Shown here piece after piece: positions 3,033 to 33,427 of a stretch of DNA of 64,000 nt (position 1 is its first letter; each line of letters opens with the position of its first letter). Origin of the DNA: a virus. Its lineage: Duplodnaviria; Caudoviricetes. The translations under genes were made by a program, and so were the position numbers. The notes under the pieces were generated by a model. It did no database searches and was not told the DNA's origin. It was given only the letters and a program-made list of their open reading frames with translations. The DNA lies in IMG/VR virus record IMGVR_UViG_3300031867_000013, positions 32,001 to 96,000 of that record. The stretch is one strand, 5' to 3'.

Positions 3033-3533
3033 TTATCTATTTTCATACCACTCTATATTACAAATAATTCTATTCATAGTATTTACAGGGGCATTTTCAT
3101 CACCATCACTAAATATGGCTGGTGTTGTAATATGTACTCCTAATCCATAATCTTTCTGTAATACTTTTTGGAACTCATATAACATATTCATAACATCTTG
3201 TGTTAATTGATACATTTGTCTATAACATATATCATCAAAATCTATTTCGTCTGTTTGACCGCCCTTGACGTATAAATCTATCCAAAATTGTACCATTGCA
3301 CCTATTCGTTGCGATTGATGATTTGTATCTTCTTCGCTACCAAATAATATCCATATTGCAGGAAATTCACCTACATTACCGCTACCTACCTTTATTTTTA
3401 GGTCATCTCTATCTACTAAATAATTAAAAGGTCTTTCTCCGTATTTAGTGTGATAGTTTTTTATAAAATCCCTAAGTCTGATTGCTATATCATACCATCT
3501 TAATTTCTTTAGCATGGAATCATCCTCTAACAT
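3033..3533 (-). CDS. Putative tail terminator / head-tail joining protein
   Basis: Size, 'FPAIWI' motif and synteny immediately upstream of tail tube. Confidence 0.5.
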   Translation of the reverse strand: MLEDDSMLKKLRWYDIAIRLRDFIKNYHTKYGERPFNYLVDRDDLKIKVGSGNVGEFPAIWILFGSEEDTNHQSQRIGAMVQFWIDLYVKGGQTDEIDFDDICYRQMYQLTQDVMNMLYEFQKVLQKDYGLGVHITTPAIFSDGDENAPVNTMNRIICNIEWYENR

Positions 3534-8851: not shown

Positions 8852-10198
8852 TTATATACCTATATTCTTTGCGGCATCTTTTATCTTATTCTTATCTTTT
8901 AATTTCTCTACTGCATACCTCATGCTGTCCACACAATGGTCATTACGTTTGAGAGGACGGTCAATACCTCTTTCTTGTGCTTTATCGTCCCATACATATG
9001 TATTTATTTCTCTTAATAAATTTTTACATTCTGTAGATACTTTTAATTTTCCTTCTGCTATATATGTAGCTACATCTCTTATACCATCTATAACAGAGTT
9101 TCTTGCATCTTTTGTTCTCATACCACTTCTATGTAATTGAACTTTGAAACTTGCCGCCGCAGGGTCTACAACAATATCCATTTTATTAAATGGTATTTGC
9201 GTATATTCATATGTTTGACCTAAAAACTCTACCATATCATCTGCAAATTCTAAATCAGTTTTTTGTGTATCATAATTACCGTGTTCATTCGCTTCTGCAC
9301 GACCTTCAAAATAATATTCTCTAACACAATATAATATTCCATTAAATGTTTTCATCCACAACGTAAAAACTGTAGCATTTCCTGTACCATAGTCTACACC
9401 AACGCACCATTTTATTGCTTCATCATAAGGAACTTCATCGGGTCTTACTACATTCTTCTCATTTGTAAACATATCATATATTCTACCCTCTGCTGATACC
9501 CATTTCCCTAAAATATATCTTGAATAGAATACACCACCATACATTTTCTTATATCGCTCTTTTACTTTATCAGATAATGATAAATTATCATCCATAGTAA
9601 AATGAACATATAAACCATTTTTATTATCTAATTGTTGCAATACATTTTTATAAAACCAATGATAAGGCCCAGCAGGATTACAATTACAAAAACATTTTGC
9701 ACCCTCTACCGATAATCTTGCAGTTGCTTGATTAAAAAATGATTCTGGTAATAGAGCGATTTCGTCCATTAGAACCGAGCAGAGTGTCATGCCCTGTATA
9801 TAATCTTGTGAAGATTCATCTTTAGCACCTGCGATGTATATATAATTAGTTATATCACCTTTAGAAACTTCTATATAATTTTCGCTACGATGTTCTAAAC
9901 AATTATATCCTAATGTTAATAACATTTGCTTTAATGGATTTAATACATTTCTTCTAAATGTTCCTACTGATTTTCCTGCCATTAATGCGTCTTGTTGATT
10001 AAAATTATTCATTACAAACATTACAAAAGATAATGCCATGCAAATTGTCTTACCAGACCTTATTGCACCGTCAGCAATAACCATAAACTTATCTTTTACA
10101 GGACTATCTTTGTGCCACCAATTTAATATCTTTTTCTGTTTTTCCGAAAAAGGTTGAAATTGAAAACCTTTTACCTTCCTTTTTTTACTATTTGCCAC
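8852..10198 (-). CDS. terL: Terminase large subunit (PBSX-like)
   Basis: Walker A 'GAIRSGKT', Walker B 'VLMDE', 'NCNPAGPYHW', nuclease 'GVDYG', 'DHCVDSMRY'. Confidence 0.95.
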   Translation of the reverse strand: MANSKKRKVKGFQFQPFSEKQKKILNWWHKDSPVKDKFMVIADGAIRSGKTICMALSFVMFVMNNFNQQDALMAGKSVGTFRRNVLNPLKQMLLTLGYNCLEHRSENYIEVSKGDITNYIYIAGAKDESSQDYIQGMTLCSVLMDEIALLPESFFNQATARLSVEGAKCFCNCNPAGPYHWFYKNVLQQLDNKNGLYVHFTMDDNLSLSDKVKERYKKMYGGVFYSRYILGKWVSAEGRIYDMFTNEKNVVRPDEVPYDEAIKWCVGVDYGTGNATVFTLWMKTFNGILYCVREYYFEGRAEANEHGNYDTQKTDLEFADDMVEFLGQTYEYTQIPFNKMDIVVDPAAASFKVQLHRSGMRTKDARNSVIDGIRDVATYIAEGKLKVSTECKNLLREINTYVWDDKAQERGIDRPLKRNDHCVDSMRYAVEKLKDKNKIKDAAKNIGI

Positions 10199-10214
10199 GA
10201 TATATCACACCTAA

Positions 10215-11033
10215 TTAATCATCTTCTTTTAATGTTTCATTTAAGTCTGCATTTATATCTTCATTTCCCCACGAACTCTTAGAACTTTCACCTAATGCAG
10301 AAAGTATATTACTATCAATATTTTCTTCAACTTTCTTTTGTGCTTTCCACTCAAAGAAATTCCTTATATTTTCCCACGCTTTCATCTTATCGGGTAATTG
10401 AATAGTGATACCATCTTTTCCTTGTTTAATTGAAACAATTATACTTGTATCTACTGTATCGCTATCTACTAAATGCATACGATTTACTTTCTTAAATTTT
10501 TGTTCTCCTGTATCTGGGTCAAATCTTAATGTACCATCTACATTATATTCTGGTATTTCTTCTTCACTAAATTTGATATAATCACCTATATCTGCATTTG
10601 CTATTTTTAATTGTGTTTCTATATATTTTGATGGGTCTATTTCATATCCTATTGTTAATATTTTCTTTAATTTCTTTATAGCATTTTGTATATTTGATTT
10701 ATTTAATAATCTATAACCATATAATGATGCTAACTTCTTATCCCCACCAAAAGATTTTAAGTATGCTTGCGTAGCATTTGTAGATTCTAAATAGTATAGT
10801 ACAAAATCTTGTTGTTTTGGTGTAAGACCTAATCCAACTAATTCATCTACTATTTTATCATTTACTTGATCTTTTCTTATATTTTCTGACCTTCTAAAAT
10901 CATCGTATATATCTTCTACGTCCACATCTTCTTTTCGTGGTCTGCCACGTTTAGGCTTTATTTCTATATTCTTTTCTTCTAACTTTTCATCTATATTTTC
11001 TTTTAAATTATCTGTTAGATATGTTTCTGCCAT
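10215..11033 (-). CDS. terS: Terminase small subunit
   Basis: 'LTPKQQDFVLYYL..NATQAY' HTH and 'DKMKA' motif; upstream of TerL; AT-hook 'KRGRPRK'. Confidence 0.85.
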   Translation of the reverse strand: MAETYLTDNLKENIDEKLEEKNIEIKPKRGRPRKEDVDVEDIYDDFRRSENIRKDQVNDKIVDELVGLGLTPKQQDFVLYYLESTNATQAYLKSFGGDKKLASLYGYRLLNKSNIQNAIKKLKKILTIGYEIDPSKYIETQLKIANADIGDYIKFSEEEIPEYNVDGTLRFDPDTGEQKFKKVNRMHLVDSDTVDTSIIVSIKQGKDGITIQLPDKMKAWENIRNFFEWKAQKKVEENIDSNILSALGESSKSSWGNEDINADLNETLKEDD

Positions 11034-11138
11034 TTATTAGACACTCCTTTCTTATATAAAAATATTATAATTTACTTAAAAATTATCTTATATTATATCA
11101 TATTTTTACACATTTGTCAAGCCTTAAAAATAGACATA

Positions 11139-11169
11139 CTAAAAGCCCCCAACGGACGGGGGCTTTTAG
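11139..11169. terminator. Terminator hairpin ending the RNA-island transcript
   Basis: CTAAAAGCCCCC-AACGGAC-GGGGGCTTTTAG perfect inverted repeat. Confidence 0.75.
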
Positions 11170-11236
11170 CTGTAAAGGAGATGTTAAAAATGAAGGATAG
11201 CTTTAAGGCAATTACCTTATCGCCACCATATTATAT

Positions 11237-11311
11237 TGGCGGGAAATAAGATAATCGAAATCTTGTCTTTAGATTGACAATCTAATATTCTAACCACTGA
11301 ACTAATTTCCC
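11237..11311 (-). tRNA. tRNA-Asp (GTC)
   Basis: GGGAAAT/ATTTCCC acceptor, anticodon arm TTAGA-TTGTCAA-TCTAA, TTCGA T-loop, encoded CCA. Confidence 0.9.
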
Positions 11312-11322
11312 GTTATATACAT

Positions 11323-11394
11323 TGGATGCGGCGGCTGGTAACGCTCCAGCTTAATCTAGCCCATGAAACTAGACGGGTTCTTAACCTCACCGCG
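11323..11394 (-). tRNA. Atypical tRNA with CAT anticodon (Met/fMet-like)
   Basis: CGCGGTG/CGCCGCA acceptor with C1:A72 mismatch, CTAGT-TTCATGG-GCTAG anticodon arm, CCA; short D arm and non-canonical T loop. Confidence 0.65.
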
Positions 11395-11397
11395 ATT

Positions 11398-11712
11398 AGT
11401 GGGCGTATTATAAATCATAATTGTAAACTTCTTACGCCTAAAGTTTTATTTTGAATAAGAGCGCGTCTTACCGATATTGCCTTGTTCCTATTATCGCGCT
11501 GATTAATAGTCATGGAGAGAACCACTTTCGCAATTCTCCCAAGTATATATCCGCAAATATATACCCCAATTAATATTTTAAGACGTATAACACACAAACT
11601 TCTGTCTTTCTGCCTTTCTGAATATATTTAGGCTTTATACACCCATACTAAGCAAAGTTTTACTGATTATGCTAATATAATTGCCTAACTACTATATAGC
11701 ATTTCGTGTGAA
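11398..11712 (-). ncRNA. Unassigned structured RNA (~310 nt) between tRNAs
   Basis: Nested helices: CACACGAA/TTTGTGTG, ACGTCTTA/TAAGACGC, GTATATAT/ATATATAC, GGGAGAA/TTCTCTC, CGATA/TATCG, GGCGTA/TACGCC; no credible ORF. Confidence 0.5.
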
Positions 11713-11740
11713 ATATTTATTTTAAGTTAAGATGTTTCTT

Positions 11741-11815
11741 TGGTAGGGACGATGAGAATCGAACTCATGTTGATGGTTTATAAGACCATTATACTCACCA
11801 TTGTATTACGTCCCA
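11741..11815 (-). tRNA. tRNA-Ile (TAT)
   Basis: Anticodon arm ATGGT-CTTATAA-ACCAT, GTTCGA T-loop, GGGACG/CGTCCC acceptor, CCA. Confidence 0.85.
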
Positions 11816-11849
11816 ATATTATATACATATTAAATGTTTTATACATTAC

Positions 11850-11913
11850 TACAAGATGCTTTTACATTCATCTTCACCCAAGAATTTGTAAAATAATTGC
11901 TGTTAGCATCTTT
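11850..11913 (-). ncRNA. ACAGCAA stem RNA copy A
   Basis: AAAGATGCT-AACAGCAATTA-TTTTACA...TGTAAAA-GCATCTTGTA. Confidence 0.65.
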
Positions 11914-12062
11914 ATAATTTAGGGGGTAGCTAAATAAAATTACTATAAATATTTTTAAATTGGGTTCTATAGTATAATAAATCTACAATTTTAAAACAAG
12001 GTATTCACGCCAATTTTTATAGTTATTATACTATAGAACTCTATTAGATGCCTAAACTTATC

Positions 12063-12168
12063 TACAAGACACATTATAAAAACTGTCTAAAAATACTTTT
12101 GGACTTCTTAGATTTAATTTTTCTGTTATCAAATAAATTATATCAATTCATTTGCTGTTCGTGTCTTT
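12063..12168 (-). ncRNA. ACAGCAA stem RNA copy B
   Basis: AAAGACACG-AACAGCAAA...TGTGTCTTGTA; TTGACA/TATAAT promoter just upstream (12180-12207). Confidence 0.65.
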
Positions 12169-12224
12169 CATTGTCTGTATTATATCATATAATTTTTAAT
12201 TTGTCAACCATTTTTTTATTTTTT

Positions 12225-12309
12225 TGGTGTCGAAGGAGGGAATCGAACCCTCATGGTAAAGACCGCAGAGGCTTAAACTCTGTGCGTATGCCAATTTCGC
12301 CACTCCGAC
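12225..12309 (-). tRNA. tRNA-Leu (TAA)
   Basis: CAGAG-TTTAAGC-CTCTG anticodon arm, long variable arm, GTTCGA, CCA. Confidence 0.9.
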
Positions 12310-12375
12310 ATATCTTATTTACATTTGTATTATACCACACGAATTTTAATTTGTCAATACTTTTTTCTTTTTCTA

Positions 12376-12462
12376 TATGCGCCCCATCCACGCACATAAT
12401 ACACAGCCCCATTAAACTTTGCTATGCTCCCTTTGAGGTTATCCGTGTGGCTACGGTTTAGG
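12376..12462 (-). ncRNA. Small multi-hairpin RNA with its own promoter
   Basis: TTGACA-17-TATATT at 12471-12499; hairpins CCGT/ACGG, GCATAGC/GCTGTGT, TATGTGC/GCGCATA. Confidence 0.45.
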
Positions 12463-12518
12463 ATATTTATAATATAGCACACAATTCTAATTTTGTCAAC
12501 TACTTTTTAAATATTTTT

Positions 12519-12596
12519 CAAAAAGAAAAGCGGGAAGAACCACCAACCCGCTTTCTTTCTTGATTTAGACAAGTTATGTCTGCAATCAACACTCTA
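12519..12596 (-). ncRNA. Candidate small RNA: promoter, hairpin, terminator
   Basis: TTGACA/TGGTATAAT promoter at ~12603-12631, hairpin TTGATT..AGACA/TGTCT..AATCAA, then AAAGCGGG/CCCGCTTT plus T-run. Confidence 0.4.
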
Positions 12597-12627
12597 TTTT
12601 GTATTATACCACAATTTTTATAATTTG

Positions 12628-14412
12628 TCAAATAAATAATGCGTCAATTTGTGCTTTTGTTGCAATAATTGAACCGCCTATTATATCCCATTTTTCTTTT
12701 TCTGTATCTGTAAAAGTTGATTCTGATGTATGTGCTAATTTACATTTATATATAAATTTATCATGCACAACTACTGTATCTAATTGATAATATGTACTTG
12801 CTTGCCAATTCTTTAAGTCACTAAATACTAAATCCCAATTTCCTATATCTGTTTCAAAACTAATATTAGAACTTGTGTGTGAATTATTGCACCTATATAA
12901 ACTATTTGCATAATTTACTACTTGATTGGTTTTATATTCTGTATTTATAGCCCAATCTTCTAATACTAATACAGATTCAGAACCTAATTCATTCCATTTA
13001 GATATATCAAAATTTACCCCGCTTGTATGTGCTGTTTTACACTCATATAAGCAATCATCATATATTACTATTTGATATACTTCATATTGAGTATTTGCCG
13101 CCCAATGTGCCATTTTATTTCCATCATATATTGTAGTTACGTGCTTTGTCCCATCGGGGTCTGTAAATGTTATTTTATGTTGACCTACTACTGTTTCATC
13201 TATAGTAGTTGTTGGGGATTTACCATCTACACCATCATTTATTGTTACAGTTTGTGTTCCATTCTTATCTGTAATACTTAATGTAGAATATTTTGCTCCT
13301 GCGGATTTTGTTAAATTTACAGTAGGACTATAACCATCTGCACCATTAGATATAACTGTTGTAGAAGTTCCTGCCGCCGAAACAATAGTAACTGTATGTG
13401 TACCATTTGGATTATCTACTACTGTTATTGAAGGGCTTACTCCATTTTCTCCTTTATCACCTTTATCACCTTTATCGCCCTTCATACCAATTATCTTACC
13501 GCAATTTTGCCATTCATATTGTTGTGTACTTGTATTTTCTAACCACATATATAAATATGGCACTTCTTCATCTAATGGGTCTCCAACTAAATAAGCATCA
13601 CCTACAGTACCAGTTGGGTGTGCGGCTTCTAAATCTTCTAATGTTTCATATTGCGCTCTTATTGTAAAGGATTTACCATCTTCACCCTTATCGCCTTTAT
13701 CACCTTTTGCGCCATCTCTTATTTTTGCACTTGTTGTGCCATTAACATCTTGAATTGTTATTGTAGCTGTATCTCCTGTTTTAGATACACTTGCAGAAGG
13801 GCTTACACCGCTTGCTCCATTTGTTCCGTTCATTACATTAAAATCTTTTGTTCCCGATTTATCTGTAATTGAAACTTTATGACCATTAGTTATATTAGTT
13901 ATTGCTACTGTAGGACTATAACCATCTGAGCCTTTTGCTCCATTTGTACCATTATATATATTTGCTGTAGTTGTTCCATTTATATCTACTAATGTTATAG
14001 TTGCTCCACTAGCTGTTTGTGTAATTTTTGCTGTAGGAACTGCTTGAACATCTACGTTTAATTTATCGCCTTGCATTTTAAGACCGCTACCTACTTTTGC
14101 GCCACCTTTTATGTTTGCTGACATTGTTGGAAGTGTATATGGCGTACCGCCGCCACCGCCGCCACCACCCCCTTTCCCGTTTACCTTAAAAGGGACTGTT
14201 GTGAATACTGCGTCTTTATTACCCGCACTTCTTACATATACTGTACCATCAAATGCTACTATCTGATTCTCAATTAATTTTATACCTGTATTATCTTCAT
14301 TAGTTGCAGATATTTCAATAGGTACTTTACTTGTGTTTTGAATAGACCCTGTAGTTTCTTCTGGTGAAACCCAAGTTCCTGCTTTTACATTATACTTTGC
14401 CATCAATATCAT
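12628..14412 (-). CDS. Collagen-like repeat protein with three C-terminal CBM5/12-like carbohydrate-binding repeats
   Basis: G-X-Y runs (GDKGDKGE), repeated 'G.DG.SPT' units, three 'W....Y....V.Y...LY.C...HTS' repeats. Confidence 0.7.
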   Translation of the reverse strand: MILMAKYNVKAGTWVSPEETTGSIQNTSKVPIEISATNEDNTGIKLIENQIVAFDGTVYVRSAGNKDAVFTTVPFKVNGKGGGGGGGGGTPYTLPTMSANIKGGAKVGSGLKMQGDKLNVDVQAVPTAKITQTASGATITLVDINGTTTANIYNGTNGAKGSDGYSPTVAITNITNGHKVSITDKSGTKDFNVMNGTNGASGVSPSASVSKTGDTATITIQDVNGTTSAKIRDGAKGDKGDKGEDGKSFTIRAQYETLEDLEAAHPTGTVGDAYLVGDPLDEEVPYLYMWLENTSTQQYEWQNCGKIIGMKGDKGDKGDKGENGVSPSITVVDNPNGTHTVTIVSAAGTSTTVISNGADGYSPTVNLTKSAGAKYSTLSITDKNGTQTVTINDGVDGKSPTTTIDETVVGQHKITFTDPDGTKHVTTIYDGNKMAHWAANTQYEVYQIVIYDDCLYECKTAHTSGVNFDISKWNELGSESVLVLEDWAINTEYKTNQVVNYANSLYRCNNSHTSSNISFETDIGNWDLVFSDLKNWQASTYYQLDTVVVHDKFIYKCKLAHTSESTFTDTEKEKWDIIGGSIIATKAQIDALFI

Positions 14413-19250: not shown

Positions 19251-19512
19251 ATAAATATAAGATAATAAAATATAAAAACAATATATAACACAAGCATATT
19301 TATATGCTTGTCAGTTATATTATAATAAAGAGTATTTAATATATCTTTCTTAATATTATAGAATATTATTATTATTATTTATTATTACTTATGTATAAAT
19401 ATGTTATATAGGGTAGCACACAAAATTTAATTTGTCAATAGGAAAAAAGTCCTATTTTTAATAAACCAAAAGTCTTATTTTTAATTATTTTCAAAAAGTA
19501 ATAAAAAATATG

Positions 19513-19541
19513 TTGACAAATATAAAATTTTGTGGTATAAT
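19513..19541 (+). promoter_or_regulatory. sigma-A promoter for the plus-strand gene block
   Basis: TTGACA-N17-TATAAT with extended -10 TG. Confidence 0.75.
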
Positions 19542-19633
19542 ACAAACAATTATAGATATTCTCTCCAAAAATTACAGTTTTAATGCATTATATGGAGAAA
19601 ATATATAGATTTTGAAGAAAGGAGGAATCCTTC

Positions 19634-20155
19634 TTGAAACCTGTTATATCAAGCAAAAATACAAAAGGAATGGTAAATTTTACAAAATCTATGGTTCATA
19701 GTATAGCAAATATAGCTTCTGTATCTCCAAGAAGTTTAGCTTTATTTTTAGCTTTATGTTCTTATGCTGATGACAATGGTTCATTAATTACAGACAATAA
19801 AACATTAGCACATTTAGTTAAAACAGAAACAAGAAAAATTGATTATTGTTTAAGAACACTACAGGAACATGGATTAATAGAAATACATAATGTAAATATT
19901 AAATATAATCACGATATATTTGGTAAAATACATGATAAACAAAATTATTATAAAACTAATAAACAAGAATGGAATATTACAGGAGATAGATATTTAACTA
20001 CAATAACTATTAGTGGTACATATAAAAGAATTTATCTTAATAAAGAATATGTTTCTTTTGCTAATGGTTATTATAATACATTATTATTATATGTTAAAAA
20101 TAATTTATACTATGATACAAGATTATCAGACAATCAAATTATTGAAGAAAGGTGA
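19634..20155 (+). CDS. RepL-like winged-helix DNA-binding protein
   Basis: 'LFLALCSYADDNGSLITDNKTLAHLV..ETRKIDYCLRTLQEHGLI'; AAGGAGG RBS, TTG start. Confidence 0.5.
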   Translation: MKPVISSKNTKGMVNFTKSMVHSIANIASVSPRSLALFLALCSYADDNGSLITDNKTLAHLVKTETRKIDYCLRTLQEHGLIEIHNVNIKYNHDIFGKIHDKQNYYKTNKQEWNITGDRYLTTITISGTYKRIYLNKEYVSFANGYYNTLLLYVKNNLYYDTRLSDNQIIEER

Positions 20156-26099: not shown

Positions 26100-26131
26100 A
26101 TAATATATATAACAGTACATTAAACAGCACA

Positions 26132-26168
26132 TTGGACGGATATATTTTTATCCGTCTATTTTTTTTTA
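26132..26168 (+). terminator. Terminator of plus-strand block
   Basis: GGACGGATA/TATCCGTCT hairpin plus long T run. Confidence 0.75.
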
Positions 26169-26616
26169 TATTTTTATAGTTTTATATTTTTATATGTATA
26201 TACAAAAGGTAATTCAAAATTCTCCAAAAATTTTTCGACACAAAGAGGATATACATATAAGAAGTGAAATATTATTTAGTGTTTTTGAGGCATTTCATTT
26301 AGTATTTTTGGGGTGTATTATTATATGTTTTTGGGATAAATAATGTTCAATATAATAGACATTATAATTTATAGCGCAATAAAATTTATATGGCGCAACA
26401 TAAAGATATAAATACATATATTTAAATAAATTTCGGCAAAAACATAAAGGTGCAGAATTTAATTAAAAATCTATTTGGGCGAAAAAATAAATAAAGAAAA
26501 GAAGATAAGTATATAGATAAAAAATAATATAATATGCTATAATTACATTTTGACATATAGCGTTACATAGGGGTAACTTGAAGTCTGAAAAAATTTGAAC
26601 GACTGGAATAACGTAT

Positions 26617-26772
26617 TGAGAACGATTCTCACTTGAACCCCGCGGAGGTAGTTGAGAATGATGATCAGTTGAGAACGATTCTTAATTGATAATGGATTCT
26701 CATTTGAGAATGGTTTTCATTTGGGAATGATTCGTAATTGATAATACGTTCTCAAATGAGAATGGATTCTCA
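26617..26772. repeat. Array of 8 Fur-box-like palindromes (TGAKAAT-N1-2-ATTCTCA), 17-18 bp period
   Basis: Copies start at 26617, 26653, 26670, 26687, 26705, 26722, 26739, 26757. Confidence 0.75.
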
Positions 26773-26781
26773 ATTAGAACG

Positions 26782-26816
26782 TGCATAAAAATTTATGGTG
26801 TATGAATAAAAATTCA
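26782..26816. promoter_or_regulatory. Tandem ArgR/AhrC-like boxes
   Basis: TGCATAAAAATTTA and TGAATAAAAATTCA, 21 bp apart. Confidence 0.5.
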
Positions 26817-27201
26817 TCACATAAAAGTATGCTTTTTTTGCATAGATTCTTTCATTTTATGCTTTTTTCGTTTTCCTGCATTTTTTCGGCGTTTTCTTTT
26901 TTCGCACATAGCGGAAGGATATTTTCATATATAGCCATAAAACGCGCAGAAAAGCCCCTAGAAACGACTAAAACATCTTGCCCTATAGTTTATACTTAAA
27001 AAATGCTTTAATGGCTTAGAGGTGATCCCAGCGAGTTTAGAAGGAATTTAGATATTTATATAGGACTTTATACTCTACAAAAAAATTTCATAGGACTTTC
27101 GGGCAAAAATGAGAAAAAGATATTGCAAATATATTGTCCCTCTGATATACTTAACATGATCAGAAAATCACACAACAAAACAGCGAAGGGAGGCGAAAAT
27201 A

Positions 27202-27348
27202 ATGGCGTTCAGACATTCTTTCAGCGTTGGATTTATGGCAAGGCAAAACAAGCCTGACATGGTAACAAAGAAAACTCTTGTACACTTCGCAAGCGTACCA
27301 GCAAAAGCAGGACGGACGGCGAAAAAAGCAGACAAGGCGAAGAAGTAA
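27202..27348 (+). CDS. Small basic hypothetical protein (48 aa)
   Basis: GGGAGG RBS; MAFRHSFSVGFMARQ...KKADKAKK; below track cutoff. Confidence 0.45.
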   Translation: MAFRHSFSVGFMARQNKPDMVTKKTLVHFASVPAKAGRTAKKADKAKK

Positions 27349-27408
27349 AAAAGGGCAAAGGGAAGGGCTAATAAGCCCTTCCCGATAATAAAAGAGGAGA
27401 TATATATT

Positions 27409-27528
27409 ATGTGGTACGTATTTTTTAAGGAAGATTCTTGGGAATGTGGATGGAGTGTTAAGAGCAGGGAAGAAGCAGAACGTTATTGTAATGCTAATCC
27501 AGATTATTGCTTCGTATATGTAGGATAG
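27409..27528 (+). CDS. Small hypothetical protein (39 aa)
   Basis: AGAGGAG RBS; MWYVFFKEDSWECGW... Confidence 0.45.
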   Translation: MWYVFFKEDSWECGWSVKSREEAERYCNANPDYCFVYVG

Positions 27529-27542
27529 AGGAGGTTTACAAA

Positions 27543-27809
27543 ATGAAGGTTTATAACATGACAAGTAATAGCACAGGGCGCAAAGTGGCAAATCAGTTTA
27601 TTATCGAGCATGAAGGAAAGGTTTATTTCCAAAGCTACAACACCATTATTGCAATGAAACAAGCAGGGAAAATAATTATTGATACTAACGCCGAAAATTA
27701 TTCTAAAACGACCAGCAAATATCTATATCAATTCTTGAATACTGACAGAAAAAGCCTTTTGCAAGCAGTAAAAGATGGGCGAATTGCACGGGCAGACCTT
27801 AACGCATGA
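27543..27809 (+). CDS. Conserved-looking phage early protein
   Basis: AGGAGG RBS; 'VANQFII...YFQSYNTIIA...YSKTTSKY'. Confidence 0.6.
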   Translation: MKVYNMTSNSTGRKVANQFIIEHEGKVYFQSYNTIIAMKQAGKIIIDTNAENYSKTTSKYLYQFLNTDRKSLLQAVKDGRIARADLNA

Positions 27810-27872
27810 GACAATAGCACAAGGGCGGGGCGAATGTTCCCTGCCCTATAAATTCAAAGGGAGGATTTAAAA

Positions 27873-28145
27873 ATGAAAATGTTTAATGTAACATTCAATA
27901 AAACGGGCGAATATGGCGATATGTATGAGGAAAGCAACGAGGCAGTTTTTCTTGCTGATAATATCGAGGATATTGTCGAATACTTGAAAAAAACTTATCT
28001 TCCCAACGGAGAGCAGAAAACGCTTGAAGAAATGATTATTTTGTCTCACGATGTAGAGGATTTTTCCCCATATGTTATCCATGAAATATTAGTCTATGAG
28101 ATTAATATTAAGCCGATAACAGATAAAATTAGTTATTTGGGATAG
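27873..28145 (+). CDS. Acidic hypothetical protein
   Basis: GGGAGG RBS. Confidence 0.55.
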   Translation: MKMFNVTFNKTGEYGDMYEESNEAVFLADNIEDIVEYLKKTYLPNGEQKTLEEMIILSHDVEDFSPYVIHEILVYEINIKPITDKISYLG

Positions 28146-28389
28146 GAGGGCTTTTTATGTATAAAGTGGTAGGGCGAACCTATACAGGGCAACACGTTGA
28201 AATGATTATTTCTGTCAATGCTCTTTATGCGTGCGCTATTGTGGAATATATTGAAAACATACAAACAGGGGAGCGTGTCTATTATGAAAATAAATGATAT
28301 AATGAATTTATTATTGCTTGTTTTAATGGGTTTTATGTCGTTTCTGTCAATGTTTCGCGCATGTATGAATTTTTAGGAGGTATAATAAT

Positions 28390-28602
28390 ATGAAGCCGAT
28401 TGCTTATTATGCTTTATTCGTTGATTTCCTCATTATGATATATGATATTGAGTACGGGATTAATGATTATATAATATATACATATAAAACACCATCGAAG
28501 GAAAGCAGGAAATTTAAGGCGAAAATTAGATATGATAAGGCAGGAAACGCCTATTTTCGGCAAAAGAATCCTGTACCGCTTTCGGAGTGCATGAAATATT
28601 AA
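28390..28602 (+). CDS. Hypothetical protein
   Basis: AGGAGG RBS, followed by terminator AAGCCCCA/TGGGGCTT. Confidence 0.55.
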   Translation: MKPIAYYALFVDFLIMIYDIEYGINDYIIYTYKTPSKESRKFKAKIRYDKAGNAYFRQKNPVPLSECMKY

Positions 28603-28643
28603 GCCCCATTTGGGGCTTTTTTATTGCCTATAAAACAGTACAT

Positions 28644-29373
28644 AATATTCTGAATATTTTTACTATTTCTTGATACATAATTATCAGAATATTATAAACA
28701 TTATAATATATCACAATATTTTGCCAATGCCATAGAATTATCAGAAAATTAAGATGTGTCATAATATTATGTTAATCATCTGAAATTGTCAGAATATTGT
28801 ATGTATCATAATATTCTGAAAACTAGATGTGCATGAATTGTCAGAATATTAAAAACATTATATGTATTTGAATGAATTGTACATAGAACGAATACAATTT
28901 AATATGTCAATAGGAAAAAAGTCCAAAATGTATGTTCTATATAAAAAATAGGAGTAAAGTCTATTGACACATAAAAACAAGGGCAAATAGTCCTATTATT
29001 TTAGAACAAAAATCGAACACTTCTAAGCCTTGCAATTATTGAAAAATCGTCATAGACGGACGAAAATCTATGTGCCTATATAAATATATGCAGACAACAT
29101 AAAAAACGATTCTAGGGGCATTTACGGGCGAATAAAGGGTATTTCTATATATTCATATATACCCATATTTTCCCTAAAAATATTTTTGTCTTTGACTTTT
29201 TGACTTATATGCAAGTTGTCAGAATATTATAAATACACATAATATTTATAGTATTATTAATATTATACTAATTATTTGATGCTATACATTTGTAAATTAA
29301 CATAATTTTCTGTCAATTTATATATCTATAATATTTTGAAAATTCAATAGATACATAAAGTTGTCAGAATATT
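28644..29373. promoter_or_regulatory. CodY-box-like cluster 1 (about 10 sites)
   Basis: e.g. AATTATCAGAAAATT 28736, AATTGTCAGAATATT 28784 and 28836, AATTTTCTGTCAATT 29304; consensus AATTTTCWGAAAATT. Confidence 0.65.
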
Positions 29374-29670
29374 TTGCAATATATGTGTCAATGGGAAATA
29401 TGTCTTATTTTTATTTGTCAATAGACCATAAGACTTATTTTTATATTTATTATATTTTCGCGTCACATAGGGATATAGAAAAATGTATATGGCTTTTATT
29501 CGTGCATAAATAGGGCTACAATCAATTTTTATATGCTATTGGTATATCTATATAAGGATAAAATAAAAAGGGCTTAAATAGCCCTTTATGCTTGTTATAT
29601 TGAATTGTGTATATAAAAAGACAATTCCCCTGCCGTAATTAGCAGGGGAAATATAGGGAAGATTATTTTA

Positions 29671-30588
29671 TCAGCCTACCAATGTTGAAAGCAATTCTAA
29701 AGCATTGTCAAGCAAAGCATTTCCGCGAATAACGCTTTTCATTTGATTTTCCCTGTAGGTCTTGGTCATGCGGGCAGGTTCAGAATGATAGGCAAAATCC
29801 GATACAGCCTGCAAAAATCCATAAGCTGTGCCGCGCAAATTGCCTAAATCATCAGCGTTATAGGCTGAAATTAAGCCGCTACGTTGATTTTCCACGATGT
29901 CCCGTTTGCGCGGCGTAGCGTCAGCAGGGAGCGGGAGCAAATTCCCAACGAGCGCATTAAACATAGTGTTTGAAACGTGAATACTTGCAAGGCGTTCTGT
30001 TTCTTGCTGAAAAATGGTACGATAGGAATTTTCATGTTCCATGATATTCCCGACCATTTCCAACTTCCCTGCTACGTCTCCTTTGTGGAGAAGGGAAAAC
30101 GACCGAACGGCTTTCTTGAAGGCAAGGTTCAAAGTGTTAGAACAAGCAGGACGGACGGGAGTGATGGCGGCGCGAATTGCGCCTTTCCCATCATGCGTAC
30201 TTGAGAAAACAACATACATTTTCATTGATTCGCCAAGGGTCATAAATTCGGGGACTTCTACGCACATCCATATTGTTTTGCCACCACTGACAATTCCCGC
30301 CGAAACGAATTTGAAATCTGTCAAATACGTTAAGAAGGAAAAAGCATCTTTGTTTTGTACGGTCTGATAACGGTCTGATACCACACCAAGAAAAGCGTTA
30401 TTGTCAGAACGGACGTTTACCTTCATGGGTGTTTCGAGGATATTACCGTCTGCAAGGCGAATCAATGCGGGAGTTTGTACGACTTCCCAGTTCATATCAG
30501 CAAGGGAAATTGCGCTTTCCACATCCACCGCGCCCGAAATATCCTGTCCATACTTCCAAGGCTCTACACGATTCATCATTTTCAACAT
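29671..30588 (-). CDS. DUF932-family phage/plasmid protein
   Basis: 'LGVVSDRYQTVQNKDAFSF', 'STHDGKGA', 'TPVRPACSNTL', 'GTAYGFLQAVSDFAYH'. Confidence 0.85.
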   Translation of the reverse strand: MLKMMNRVEPWKYGQDISGAVDVESAISLADMNWEVVQTPALIRLADGNILETPMKVNVRSDNNAFLGVVSDRYQTVQNKDAFSFLTYLTDFKFVSAGIVSGGKTIWMCVEVPEFMTLGESMKMYVVFSSTHDGKGAIRAAITPVRPACSNTLNLAFKKAVRSFSLLHKGDVAGKLEMVGNIMEHENSYRTIFQQETERLASIHVSNTMFNALVGNLLPLPADATPRKRDIVENQRSGLISAYNADDLGNLRGTAYGFLQAVSDFAYHSEPARMTKTYRENQMKSVIRGNALLDNALELLSTLVG

Positions 30589-30778
30589 TTTCAACACTCC
30601 TTTTTTAAAATAGATGATTAACCTATACATATTAAACCACAAACAAATAATTATTGCAAGCATTTTTTTTATAAAAATCATAAAAAAATTTTCCTTCCTA
30701 TTATAAGGGAAAAATTTTTATAATTTACATATCTATTGAAATTGAGAATAATTTTTATTTGCCCATCGAGGATTTTAT

Positions 30779-31107
30779 AATTTTCTGACAATTCCATAGG
30801 AAGATATAATAATATTCTGAAAATTTCAGGCGAATAGAGGAACACAAAATTTTCTGAAAATTTATAAAAATTTGACTTCCATATAATTGTTTTAAGCGAT
30901 TTTTTCAGACTATTCCATATATTTATACTAATAAGAATTTTTCGTGTCTTAAAACTAATTTCTTAAAGTATTGAAAATACTGACTTTTCAGGCTATTATG
31001 ACAATTATAAACATAAATGTAAATATTCTGAATATTATACTAAATATTTAATGTATGGATTCTTATATATAGTATAATATTCTGACAGATATAATATTCT
31101 GATAATT
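30779..31107. promoter_or_regulatory. CodY-box-like cluster 2, upstream of the DUF932 gene
   Basis: Perfect AATTTTCTGAAAATT at 30848; near-matches at 30779, 30811, 31022, 31076, 31093. Confidence 0.65.
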
Positions 31108-31233
31108 TTATGGCGCAAATAAAGATTTCAAAAAATTATGTGTTCCTTTAATAGATTAAAGTATAAAAATGTCAAGATATATATATACAATAAAAAATTC
31201 CCCCGCAAAAAGCAGGGGAATATGTATATATAT

Positions 31234-31410
31234 TTATTCTTCCTCCTTTTGTACGTCTACGACTTCTTTTACACCCAAGAAACGGAAATTATGCAAGTCA
31301 GAAGGAGTAAACCACTTTTTGCTTGCAATTTTAGCCGCTTCTTTTTCGTTCTTTGCATCAACGTAAATCTCCCCCGTAAAAACAACGTCTACTTGCACTT
31401 GATACGTCAT
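31234..31410 (-). CDS. Small hypothetical protein (58 aa)
   Basis: AAGGAGATGT RBS; MTYQVQVDVVFTGEIYVDAKNEKEAAKIA...; terminator downstream. Confidence 0.6.
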   Translation of the reverse strand: MTYQVQVDVVFTGEIYVDAKNEKEAAKIASKKWFTPSDLHNFRFLGVKEVVDVQKEEE

Positions 31411-31526
31411 AAGAACATCTCCTTTTCATATAATAAATTCAACCTAACTATATTATACACATTACAGGATATAATGCAAGTGTTTTTTATAAAAAATCCT
31501 AAAATATTTTTCTTTCTATTATAAGG

Positions 31527-32667
31527 AATTGTCAGAATATTTAGTGTCTTTTGACAATGCACATTTGTTGGAACATTTTGTATTCTATATATGGTAAAAA
31601 TCATACTATTCTGAATATTTGCCTTGCTAGAGTAAGAGATTAAATTTTCAGAAAATTTCAAATTTGTCCACGGCATATCAAAATTTTCAGAAAAATCTAA
31701 ATAATATAATACGTCAAATATATCTGAAATGTGCATAAATACTGACAATTAGGAATATTTCGGCGCAAACAAAAAGGAAACATAATATTCAGAAAATTAG
31801 GCAATTTTTTCCTATATAGAGAAATACAAATTAGTCAGAAAATTATAAAATATAAGAATAATATAATATGTCAGAATATAGGCGCAACATAAAGGAATAT
31901 GAATTTTCAGATAATTCTTATATATCTTATTATTCTTATATTTCGCGCAAAACAAAAAGGGATAAATATTCAGACAATTATATATAATCATATATTTCTA
32001 TATAATATTATATTTCTATATATAATATAATAATCAGACAATATAGAATATTATATGTATTCTACCAATATACATTTGTCAGAAAGTTTTGTATTTTCCT
32101 ATAGGGAAAATTTATACTTTTCTGAAAACTTTCCTTGCGGCACTAAGGAAGTATAATTATCAGAAAATTATGATTTTGTCCACGAATAATCTGAAATTTA
32201 ATATTCTGACAATTTAAAATAAACTTTTTACTTGACAAATACAAATATAGGCAAATAGTACCAATAAAATAGAATGTATGTACGGGCTGGGAAGCCTTGA
32301 AATTAAAGGAAAATCGTCTGTATTCGACGAAAAAAGACTACCGAATATAAATATATGCGTACCATATAAAAAACGACTGGCAAGGCTGCCAGATAGGTTA
32401 AAATGGATTTTAAGTATTGACAAAAACCTAAAATTTTATCATTCTTTGACTTTTTGTCCAATAAAGTTATATGTCTATATATAATATAAATAGACATAAT
32501 AATATGAATTGTCAGAAAATTAGGGCGCGGCAAAAAACAAAAAAGAGAAAGAGAATCATTATATATAGAGAGAATATATATCAAATGAAAATAATTATTA
32601 TTATATGATAATGATTATAGCTATATATATAGACAATATTGCTATTTTTCATAGTTTTCTGAAAATT
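31527..32667. promoter_or_regulatory. CodY-box-like cluster 3 (about 15 sites)
   Basis: Perfect AATTTTCAGAAAATT at 31643; near-matches at ~31527, 31682, 31784, 31902, 31965, 32155, 32200, 32507, 32653. Confidence 0.65.
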
Positions 32668-33138
32668 TCTATATTTATGGTTCTTTAGTGTATTAAAGCA
32701 CTAAATTAGTATGCTATTAACGTATTTATTCTTCTTTTCTTTAGTATAGTAAAGTAAGCGAGCGAAACAGGGAATATTTTTCACTTTTTGTCAATACTTC
32801 AAATTTTCAAAATTTAATATGAATAAAAACTATTTTCTTAATACTATAAATTTTCTATTTATTATTAATACTCTAAAATATAATTCTATATATTCTTTCT
32901 TTCTATATATCCATATATTTATATACTATCCCTCTTTCTTTTTTGTTTTTTGCGCCCAGGATAGTTTTATATATTATAGTATTATATTTATATATATTAG
33001 ACTTTATATATACTCCCATCTTTTTCTTTGTTTTCCGCGCCAAATATATATTATAGTTATATATAAAACATTATATTATGTATCCTCTTTTCTTTTTATT
33101 TTTGCCGCCAAAATATCCTTGAAATATACTTTATTTTA

Positions 33139-33268
33139 TATATGAAAGTATACTCATATATTCATAAATAAATCAAACATACTTTCTATTATATAAATAT
33201 ATGAACATATAAATATATGAACAATCATTCATATATATTATATTCTTATATGAACATATATTCATATA
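33139..33268. promoter_or_regulatory. Cluster of ATATGAAC-type palindromes (ArsR/SmtB-like)
   Basis: TGAA-N6-TTCA cores at 33218 and 33251, a one-mismatch core (TGAA-N6-CTCA) at 33143, with ATA/TAT flanks. Confidence 0.4.
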
Positions 33269-33427
33269 TAGACAAATAAAAAAGCAGGAAAATTATATTC
33301 CCTGCTTATATATATTATAAGTTTTTTATTCCTTTTATAATATTATCTATTTTTTCATTGTATTCCGTTTCAAGTTTATATTGCCTATAATCATCACTAT
33401 ATTGTGGATAAGGATATTTATAATTTT

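Follow-up and report, generated by a model that had tools for sequence, protein, structure and literature searches.

Analysis of the window, i.e., the whole stretch of 64,000 nucleotides (nt) taken from positions 32,001 to 96,000 of the IMG/VR virus record IMGVR_UViG_3300031867_000013, revealed a gene-poor island in a gut phage of the tailed type, in which arrays of short palindromes resemble the operators of two host regulators, CodY and a member of the Fur family. The 117,886-bp genome of this phage (ends overlapping by 150 bp, GC content of about 28%) carries portal, capsid and tail genes, a PBSX-type large terminase, a family-A DNA polymerase, eight tRNA genes and a tmRNA. The closest cultured matches of the polymerase (about 37% identity) and of the terminase (about 50%) belong to phages of Clostridium (mostly), Streptococcus and Bacillus, and since these best matches are all Firmicutes phages, the host is likely a member of the Firmicutes. 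Small genes on the + strand span 19.6-28.6 kb and are preceded by the main early promoter (19514-19542), which is of the sigma-A consensus type and reads as a perfect TTGACA-17-TATAAT with TG, and the AT-rich island (GC 21-30%) forms the spacer between this + strand early block and the - strand replication block. Its relatives are metagenome contigs that were reached via homologues of the DUF932 protein (74-89% protein identity) and share synteny with the island, their nucleotide identity being about 73%. The features of the island are listed below, with the strand where one applies.

26375-26493, + strand: GGCGCAA/purine-tract repeats, three to four copies, read from the sequence
26616-26779: eight 17-18-bp palindromes TTGAGAAT-N-ATTCTCAA (Fur-family-type 7-1-7 boxes)
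26782-26816: two ARG-box-like sites in tandem, the only such pair, with starts 21 nt apart and a perfect TGAATAAAAATTCA as the second
27123-27151, + strand: sigma-A-type promoter TTGCAA-17-TATACT for the small-gene block
27202-28602, + strand: six small protein genes with strong ribosome-binding sites, GC about 37% versus about 27% around them, two with PHROG matches
28601-28618: bidirectional terminator hairpin closing the + strand early block
28644-28850: CodY-type box cluster I, six boxes, position partly conserved in relatives
28885-29215: unit A, a conserved non-coding module and paralogue of unit B, with an inverted pair of TGTCAATAG iterons and a small hairpin
29216-29375: CodY-type boxes, of which box 29216 overlaps a promoter-like TTGTCA-16-CATAAT
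29382-29441, + strand: two 30-bp iterons TGTCAATAG..GTCYTAT, copy number varying among relatives
29567-29650, - strand: two terminator hairpins behind the DUF932 gene
29671-30588, - strand: DUF932 gene, 305 amino acids (aa), Pfam 9e-43, with its own promoter and terminators
30620-30655, - strand: predicted sigma-A-type promoter of the DUF932 gene, TTGCAA-17-TTTAAT, conserved in the alignment of relatives
30779-30862: CodY-type box cluster II, consisting of three boxes, one of them a perfect copy, at a distance of 120-210 nt upstream from the promoter of DUF932
31022-31107: three to four CodY-type boxes
31197-31480, - strand: 58-aa gene (31234-31410) with terminator (31197-31221) and promoter TTGCAT-16-TATAAT (about 31450-31480)
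31527-32214: CodY-type box cluster III, with about 12 boxes, one of them a perfect copy; several have a GGCGCAA-purine tract attached about 20 nt upstream
32225-32470: unit B, paralogue of unit A, present among relatives in L066 only
32507-32667: two more CodY-type boxes
32930-33115, - strand: three GGCGCAA-purine-tract repeats in the opposite orientation
33191-33270: TATATGAAC repeats including a 22-bp palindrome
33282-33307, - strand: terminator closing the - strand replication block

The original prediction, made from the letters of the window, had described the island as several kilobases of non-coding DNA, and this description holds for the larger part of it: 69% of 26100-33427 is non-coding, but the island is not empty and harbors eight real genes. 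A block homologous to the six small genes is found in relatives, the 58-aa gene is kept in two of them, and the start of the DUF932 gene was assigned at the 305-aa position from the starts of its homologues. Reading through TGA or TAG opens no long frame in the island, gene calls in the relatives add no further island genes, and the search for known RNAs gave zero Rfam matches in the island even at E = 1.

CodY-type boxes were defined as matches to the 15-bp palindrome AATTTTCWGAAAATT with up to two mismatches, and expected counts were obtained from dinucleotide-preserving shuffles. The window contains 25 such boxes against 2.2 expected, two of them perfect and nine with one mismatch, and 24 of the 26 matches in the whole genome fall inside the 4 kb between 28644 and 32667. 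The half-site 10-mers TCAGAATATT, TCAGAAAATT, TCTGAAAATT and TCTGAATATT occur 32 times in the island and not once in the other 113 kb; likewise, the TCWGA core is strictly kept in the boxes and absent from this remaining, equally AT-rich part of the genome. These counts bear out the CodY-like cluster that had been proposed by eye. The commonest box variant in the island is AATTGTCAGAATATT, and AATTGTCAGAATATT/AATATTCTGACAATT is the predicted CodY box of S. salivarius thrC (PMC5966866), while its halves, TCTGACAATT and CAGAATATT, are both present in site II of B. subtilis braB, a strong CodY site (PMC4608796). Neighbouring boxes of the island are spaced by 17-57 nt. The relatives hold 15 CodY-type boxes against 0.78 expected, with boxes 30779, 30811, 30848 and 28644 fixed in position and the others gained or lost as whole units; the boxes of cluster II are kept in nearly all relatives. 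No close relatives were obtained from IMG/VR with single-protein queries.

The same arrays were then recovered from other phages, by scanning viral contigs for paired boxes and by BLAST searches with the array of one of these contigs, G002. Dense arrays of 17-22 boxes were present in the viral contigs G001 and G003, which are related to each other, and in G002, whose array matched Bastillevirinae (Bastille, CAM003, Evoli and others, of the B. cereus group, and P59 on Cytobacillus) and Sextaecvirus phages of Mammaliicoccus. CodY-type arrays with the same box and the same variants thus recur in four other, unrelated lineages (G001/G003, G002, Bastillevirinae and Sextaecvirus). In the cultured Bacillus phages P59 and Bastille, the 15-25 boxes are confined to unannotated terminal-repeat or early-region spacers: those of Bastille (L080) lie almost entirely within 2 kb (130267-132052 of the record), and P59 (L079) has 21 boxes in its first 20 kb against 0.12 expected, all of them inside its 13.3-kb terminal repeat and almost entirely at 9.8-13.2 kb (9792-13242 of the record). 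The main cluster of vB-SscS-F1 spans about 300 bp of a divergent junction in the early region, and another three boxes are located 2.5-6 kb upstream. Double boxes with a 9-nt offset are common in P59, vB-SscS-F1, G001 and G002; units 1-6 of P59 are such 24-nt double boxes, devoid of a -10 element at promoter spacing, and an overlapping-site binding mode has been proposed for CodY (PMC5314169). In all five lineages the array lies in spacer DNA of the early region, surrounded by small genes, and is in most cases flanked by a terminator on one side and the next sigma-A promoter on the other.

No protein common to the five lineages was found within about 20 kb of the arrays, in a comparison that left out remote homology of small proteins, and no phage-encoded CodY or Fur was found in the genome. 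Because of this lack of a shared protein and of a CodY or Fur gene in the phage, binding of the arrays by a conserved host factor would be the economical reading. Among 185,579 bacterial species genomes, the paired box variant occurs once, and no description of the motif or of phage-borne CodY arrays was retrieved in literature searches. Contigs of about 115 kb from the viral paired-box scan share with the phage RNA-island motifs only, and no proteins. In G002 (L071:12450-12650), an unrelated gut phage, about nine copies of GAGAGTTGACGG stand beside the CodY-type array in the same spacer. Interpretation of the boxes as tandem sigma-A promoters was rejected: the -35-like hexamer is never TTGACA, its position 4 being always T, symmetric variants such as AATTGTCAGACAATT occur, and units 1-6 of P59 carry no -10 element.

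The second array is composed of 7.4 tandem copies and one more copy of a Fur-type unit with the consensus TTGAGAATGGATTCTCAA, forming 7-1-7 inverted repeats (TGAGAAC-G-ATTCTCA and seven variants) with a period of 17-18 bp. When TTGAGAATNATTCTCAA was searched in 301 genomes of the class Clostridia, 37 genomes matched, and 34 sites were looked at, about 13 of which fall in long open reading frames and about 21 in intergenic regions. Four of the intergenic sites lie directly upstream of operons encoding a FUR-family protein and ZnuA, three are upstream of FeoA-FeoB, and one adjoins the gene of an iron-type binding protein (Peripla_BP_2); rubrerythrin and flavodoxin genes were also seen. Since it stands upstream of zur-znuA and feoAB operons, the palindromic word is, as judged from these positions, a Fur-family (Zur/Fur) operator in the class Clostridia, and the phage units with a central G look closer to feo-type sites. 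The predicted Fur-like cluster therefore stands as a real palindrome array whose word precedes metal-uptake operons in Clostridia, but not as a match to the Fur consensus of Bacillus.

Altogether, resemblance to host regulator sites was retained for two of the four regulators originally named, CodY and the Fur family, and not for ArgR or ArsR. Matches to the ARG box TGAAT-WWWW-ATTCA are at chance level in the window (3 versus 3.0 expected with up to one mismatch, 15 versus 35 with up to two), leaving only the one tandem pair with starts at 26782 and 26803. A separate ArsR-like motif was not identified in the island; the claim may have meant the TATATGAAC repeats and palindromes at 33191-33270. 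The two unassigned motifs of the same prediction correspond to real repeat families, namely TGTCAATAGR iterons (28 versus 11 expected in the window) and GGCGCAA-purine-tract repeats (23 matches to the pattern versus 5 expected).

In Firmicutes, CodY senses GTP and branched-chain amino acids, and the Fur family comprises metal sensors. The motifs are observed to be enriched, maintained in relatives, present again in unrelated phages and in agreement with operators of hosts, from which we infer with a probability of about 0.55 that the host regulators CodY and a Fur-family protein dock on the phage arrays. About 30 CodY-type and eight Fur-family-type boxes, interspersed with gene cassettes and other iterons, would then serve as host-regulator operators on phage DNA. 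In the course of phage replication these sites would come to outnumber the chromosomal ones and form a sink for both repressors, which would relieve the repression of the amino-acid supply and metal-uptake regulons of the host, local control of the promoters of the island being a secondary effect. That the docked arrays titrate host repressors in such a multi-regulator sink is put forward tentatively. An equally speculative extension is that protein-free host reprogramming by a DNA sponge could be a strategy common to many unrelated Firmicutes phages, with arrays that would evolve by gain, loss and swapping of operator units. A sink would fit better than a classical operator because the boxes are dense, their positions turn over at a maintained number, and the well-defined promoters are not overlapped; moreover, the number of sites far exceeds the needs of a switch, the arrays differ between relatives, and two different repressors would be targeted. 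On these grounds titration is slightly preferred over a gating function.

Several observations weigh against docking or against the sink. The B. subtilis Fur consensus TGATAAT-N-ATTATCA is not enriched (5 matches versus 3.3 expected in the window), and only one unit of the Fur-type array comes within two mismatches of it. The Fur-type array is expanded in this phage only and counts two copies in the relatives L060 and L062, and is therefore a recent expansion. Of the 61 sampled genomes of the class Clostridia (G009-G068; completeness uncertain), only 11 showed the CodY domain (PF06018), and the four genomes with a zur-znuA-type site lack it; of the four genomes that have the Fur-type word next to iron genes, three contain CodY. 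The boxes of the island are mostly single, with 24-nt double sites (9-nt offset) rare in the window. Box columns are conserved among relatives no better than other non-coding columns (0.747 versus 0.740), and it is therefore the number of boxes that is maintained and not each site. A sink would also bring the phage little benefit in the case of an early shut-off of host transcription.

The placement of the arrays in early regions, upstream of sigma-A promoters, speaks for transcriptional gating, in which docking of CodY and of the Fur-family protein would serve sensing, and the arrays would gate, block or boost neighbouring early promoters or cassettes according to the nutrient and metal state of the host. 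This arrangement is common to all five lineages, clusters II and III sit 85-240 nt upstream of the promoters of the DUF932 and 58-aa genes, and boxes 28786 and 29216 each extend into a TTGTCA hexamer of the -35 type that has a -10 at a distance of 16-17 nt, the promoter-like site at 29216 being nearly invariant among relatives. The Spo0A boxes of phi29/Nf provide a precedent (PMC2731898), and CodY is known to act by roadblock (PMC5314169). However, one to three sites would be enough for such control, whereas the island has about 30; the well-defined promoters (27123, DUF932, 58-aa gene and the main early promoter at 19514) are free of any box overlap, and the eight Fur-type boxes end about 345 bp before the next promoter. 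Gating as the principal function is held to be only slightly less probable than titration.

About as probable as gating is the view that the repeats are bound by phage proteins or by another factor, the island being a replication origin or a regulatory iteron field with a coincidental likeness to CodY and Fur sites. Several iteron families of variable copy number, inverted repeats and AT-rich DNA would suit an origin, as would the box array of G002, which adjoins a second iteron array; the TGTCAATAG iteron is also found upstream of the main early promoter, the first early gene, 7 kb from the island, encodes an HTH_36 protein, and most of the sampled Clostridia have no detected CodY. Yet one 15-bp palindrome, in one set of variants, is used by five unrelated lineages for which no common protein was found close to the arrays; real CodY sites show these variants, bacterial metal-uptake operons are marked by the Fur-type palindrome, and no initiator gene adjoins the island. 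The least probable explanation dispenses with a specific binder altogether and attributes the arrays to phased A/T tracts (curved DNA, or UP-element-like enhancers upstream of early promoters) or to neutral tandem duplication in an AT-rich spacer. Base composition, differences between relatives by whole units and the unremarkable conservation of box columns agree with it; the strictly kept TCWGA core that is missing elsewhere in the genome, the symmetry of the palindromic variants, the convergence of unrelated phages on one word and the lower counts in shuffled sequence (2.2 versus 25) do not.

Compared with known systems, the arrays share with the CodY operators of Firmicutes the AATTTTCWGAAAATT palindrome including perfect copies, natural variants such as those of braB (B. 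subtilis) and thrC/ilvD (S. salivarius) and, in the other phages, the overlapping arrangement with a 9-nt offset. They differ in that chromosomal operators have one to few boxes at a promoter, whereas the phage has about 30 putative ones in spacer DNA, mostly off core promoters. The Fur-type array has the inverted repeat of the 7-1-7 boxes of the Fur family (Fur/Zur/PerR) and the word found upstream of zur-znuA and feoAB in Clostridia, but departs from the B. subtilis consensus. Multicopy Fur boxes on a replicating molecule are the setting in which titration works (the Fur titration effect), and to our knowledge eight head-to-tail copies are unlike any chromosomal operator.

Sites of host regulators have been borrowed singly by phages, as with the Spo0A boxes of phi29, the LexA boxes of prophages and the DnaA boxes of T5. 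The closest published parallels to the island are the Spo0A boxes of phi29 and the injection-stop (iss) region of T5 with its DnaA boxes. Like the island, phi29/Nf carries sites of a host master regulator (Spo0A boxes, and parS sites too) on a virulent-type Firmicutes phage, and these boxes let the physiological state of the host act on the phage (PMC2731898). In phi29 there are few Spo0A boxes, located at the main early promoters and near the origins, with proven binding and effects (PMC2731898), whereas the island has dense arrays of predicted sites for other regulators. The untranslated iss region of T5 holds eight DnaA boxes (bioRxiv 10.1101/866236), and resembles the island in having large untranslated early-region repeats, the core of which is an array of sites for a DNA-binding protein of the host. 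Its motifs are not those of the island, and T5 has long terminal repeats and two-step injection, unlike the present phage, with its PBSX-type, headful-like terminase and no sign of a terminal repeat. A T5-like genome end was likewise rejected: the PBSX-type terminase is that of headful-packaging phages, from which the packaging mode was deduced, and the ends overlap by 150 bp only.

If docking takes place, arrays for global metabolic repressors would constitute a new layer of phage-host interplay that is borne by DNA and not by protein, acting either as a nutrient and metal sensor or as a decoy that rewires host metabolism. This is directly testable, as cultured phages with arrays grow on tractable hosts (Bastille and P59 on the B. 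cereus group and relatives, vB-SscS-F1 on Mammaliicoccus). For annotation, such "empty" spacers should not by default be taken as junk or as operators of phage repressors.

The remaining repeats of the island belong to several families. The 30-bp iteron, TGTCAATAGG..GTCCTATTTTT, also occurs at 19433-19470, 60-90 nt upstream of the main early promoter, where a regulator of the phage likely uses it as an operator; the HTH_36 protein, product of the first early gene (19634-20155), is a possible candidate. About 12 repeats consist of GGCGCAA and a purine-rich tract with AAAGGA at its end, and they often precede a CodY-type box by about 20 nt; these tracts lie at 26375-26493 and 30826-32540 on the + strand and at 32930-33115 on the - strand, with the strand switch near 32.7 kb. 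Units A and B, of 230-340 nt, have invariant blocks in common, e.g., TATATAAATATATGC and TTTGACTTTTTG, and the stem of their small hairpin changes by paired substitutions among relatives. Their interpretation as small RNAs was rejected, since the - strand has support for a single hairpin of 5 bp and the + strand for none. A third copy of the unit is present in the relative L060, at the place where the window has the Fur-type array.

In another part of the island, L060 contains four copies of a different 7-1-7 palindrome, GGTCAAT-C-ATTGACC, spaced by about 35 nt (3036-3167), where the window has other repeats, and to judge from such cases the relatives seem to swap operator-like arrays. Finally, paralogous cassettes of about 110 nt, consisting of promoter and leader, precede the DUF932 gene (30600-30740) and the 58-aa gene (31415-31525), as if one portable expression cassette had been reused at both genes.

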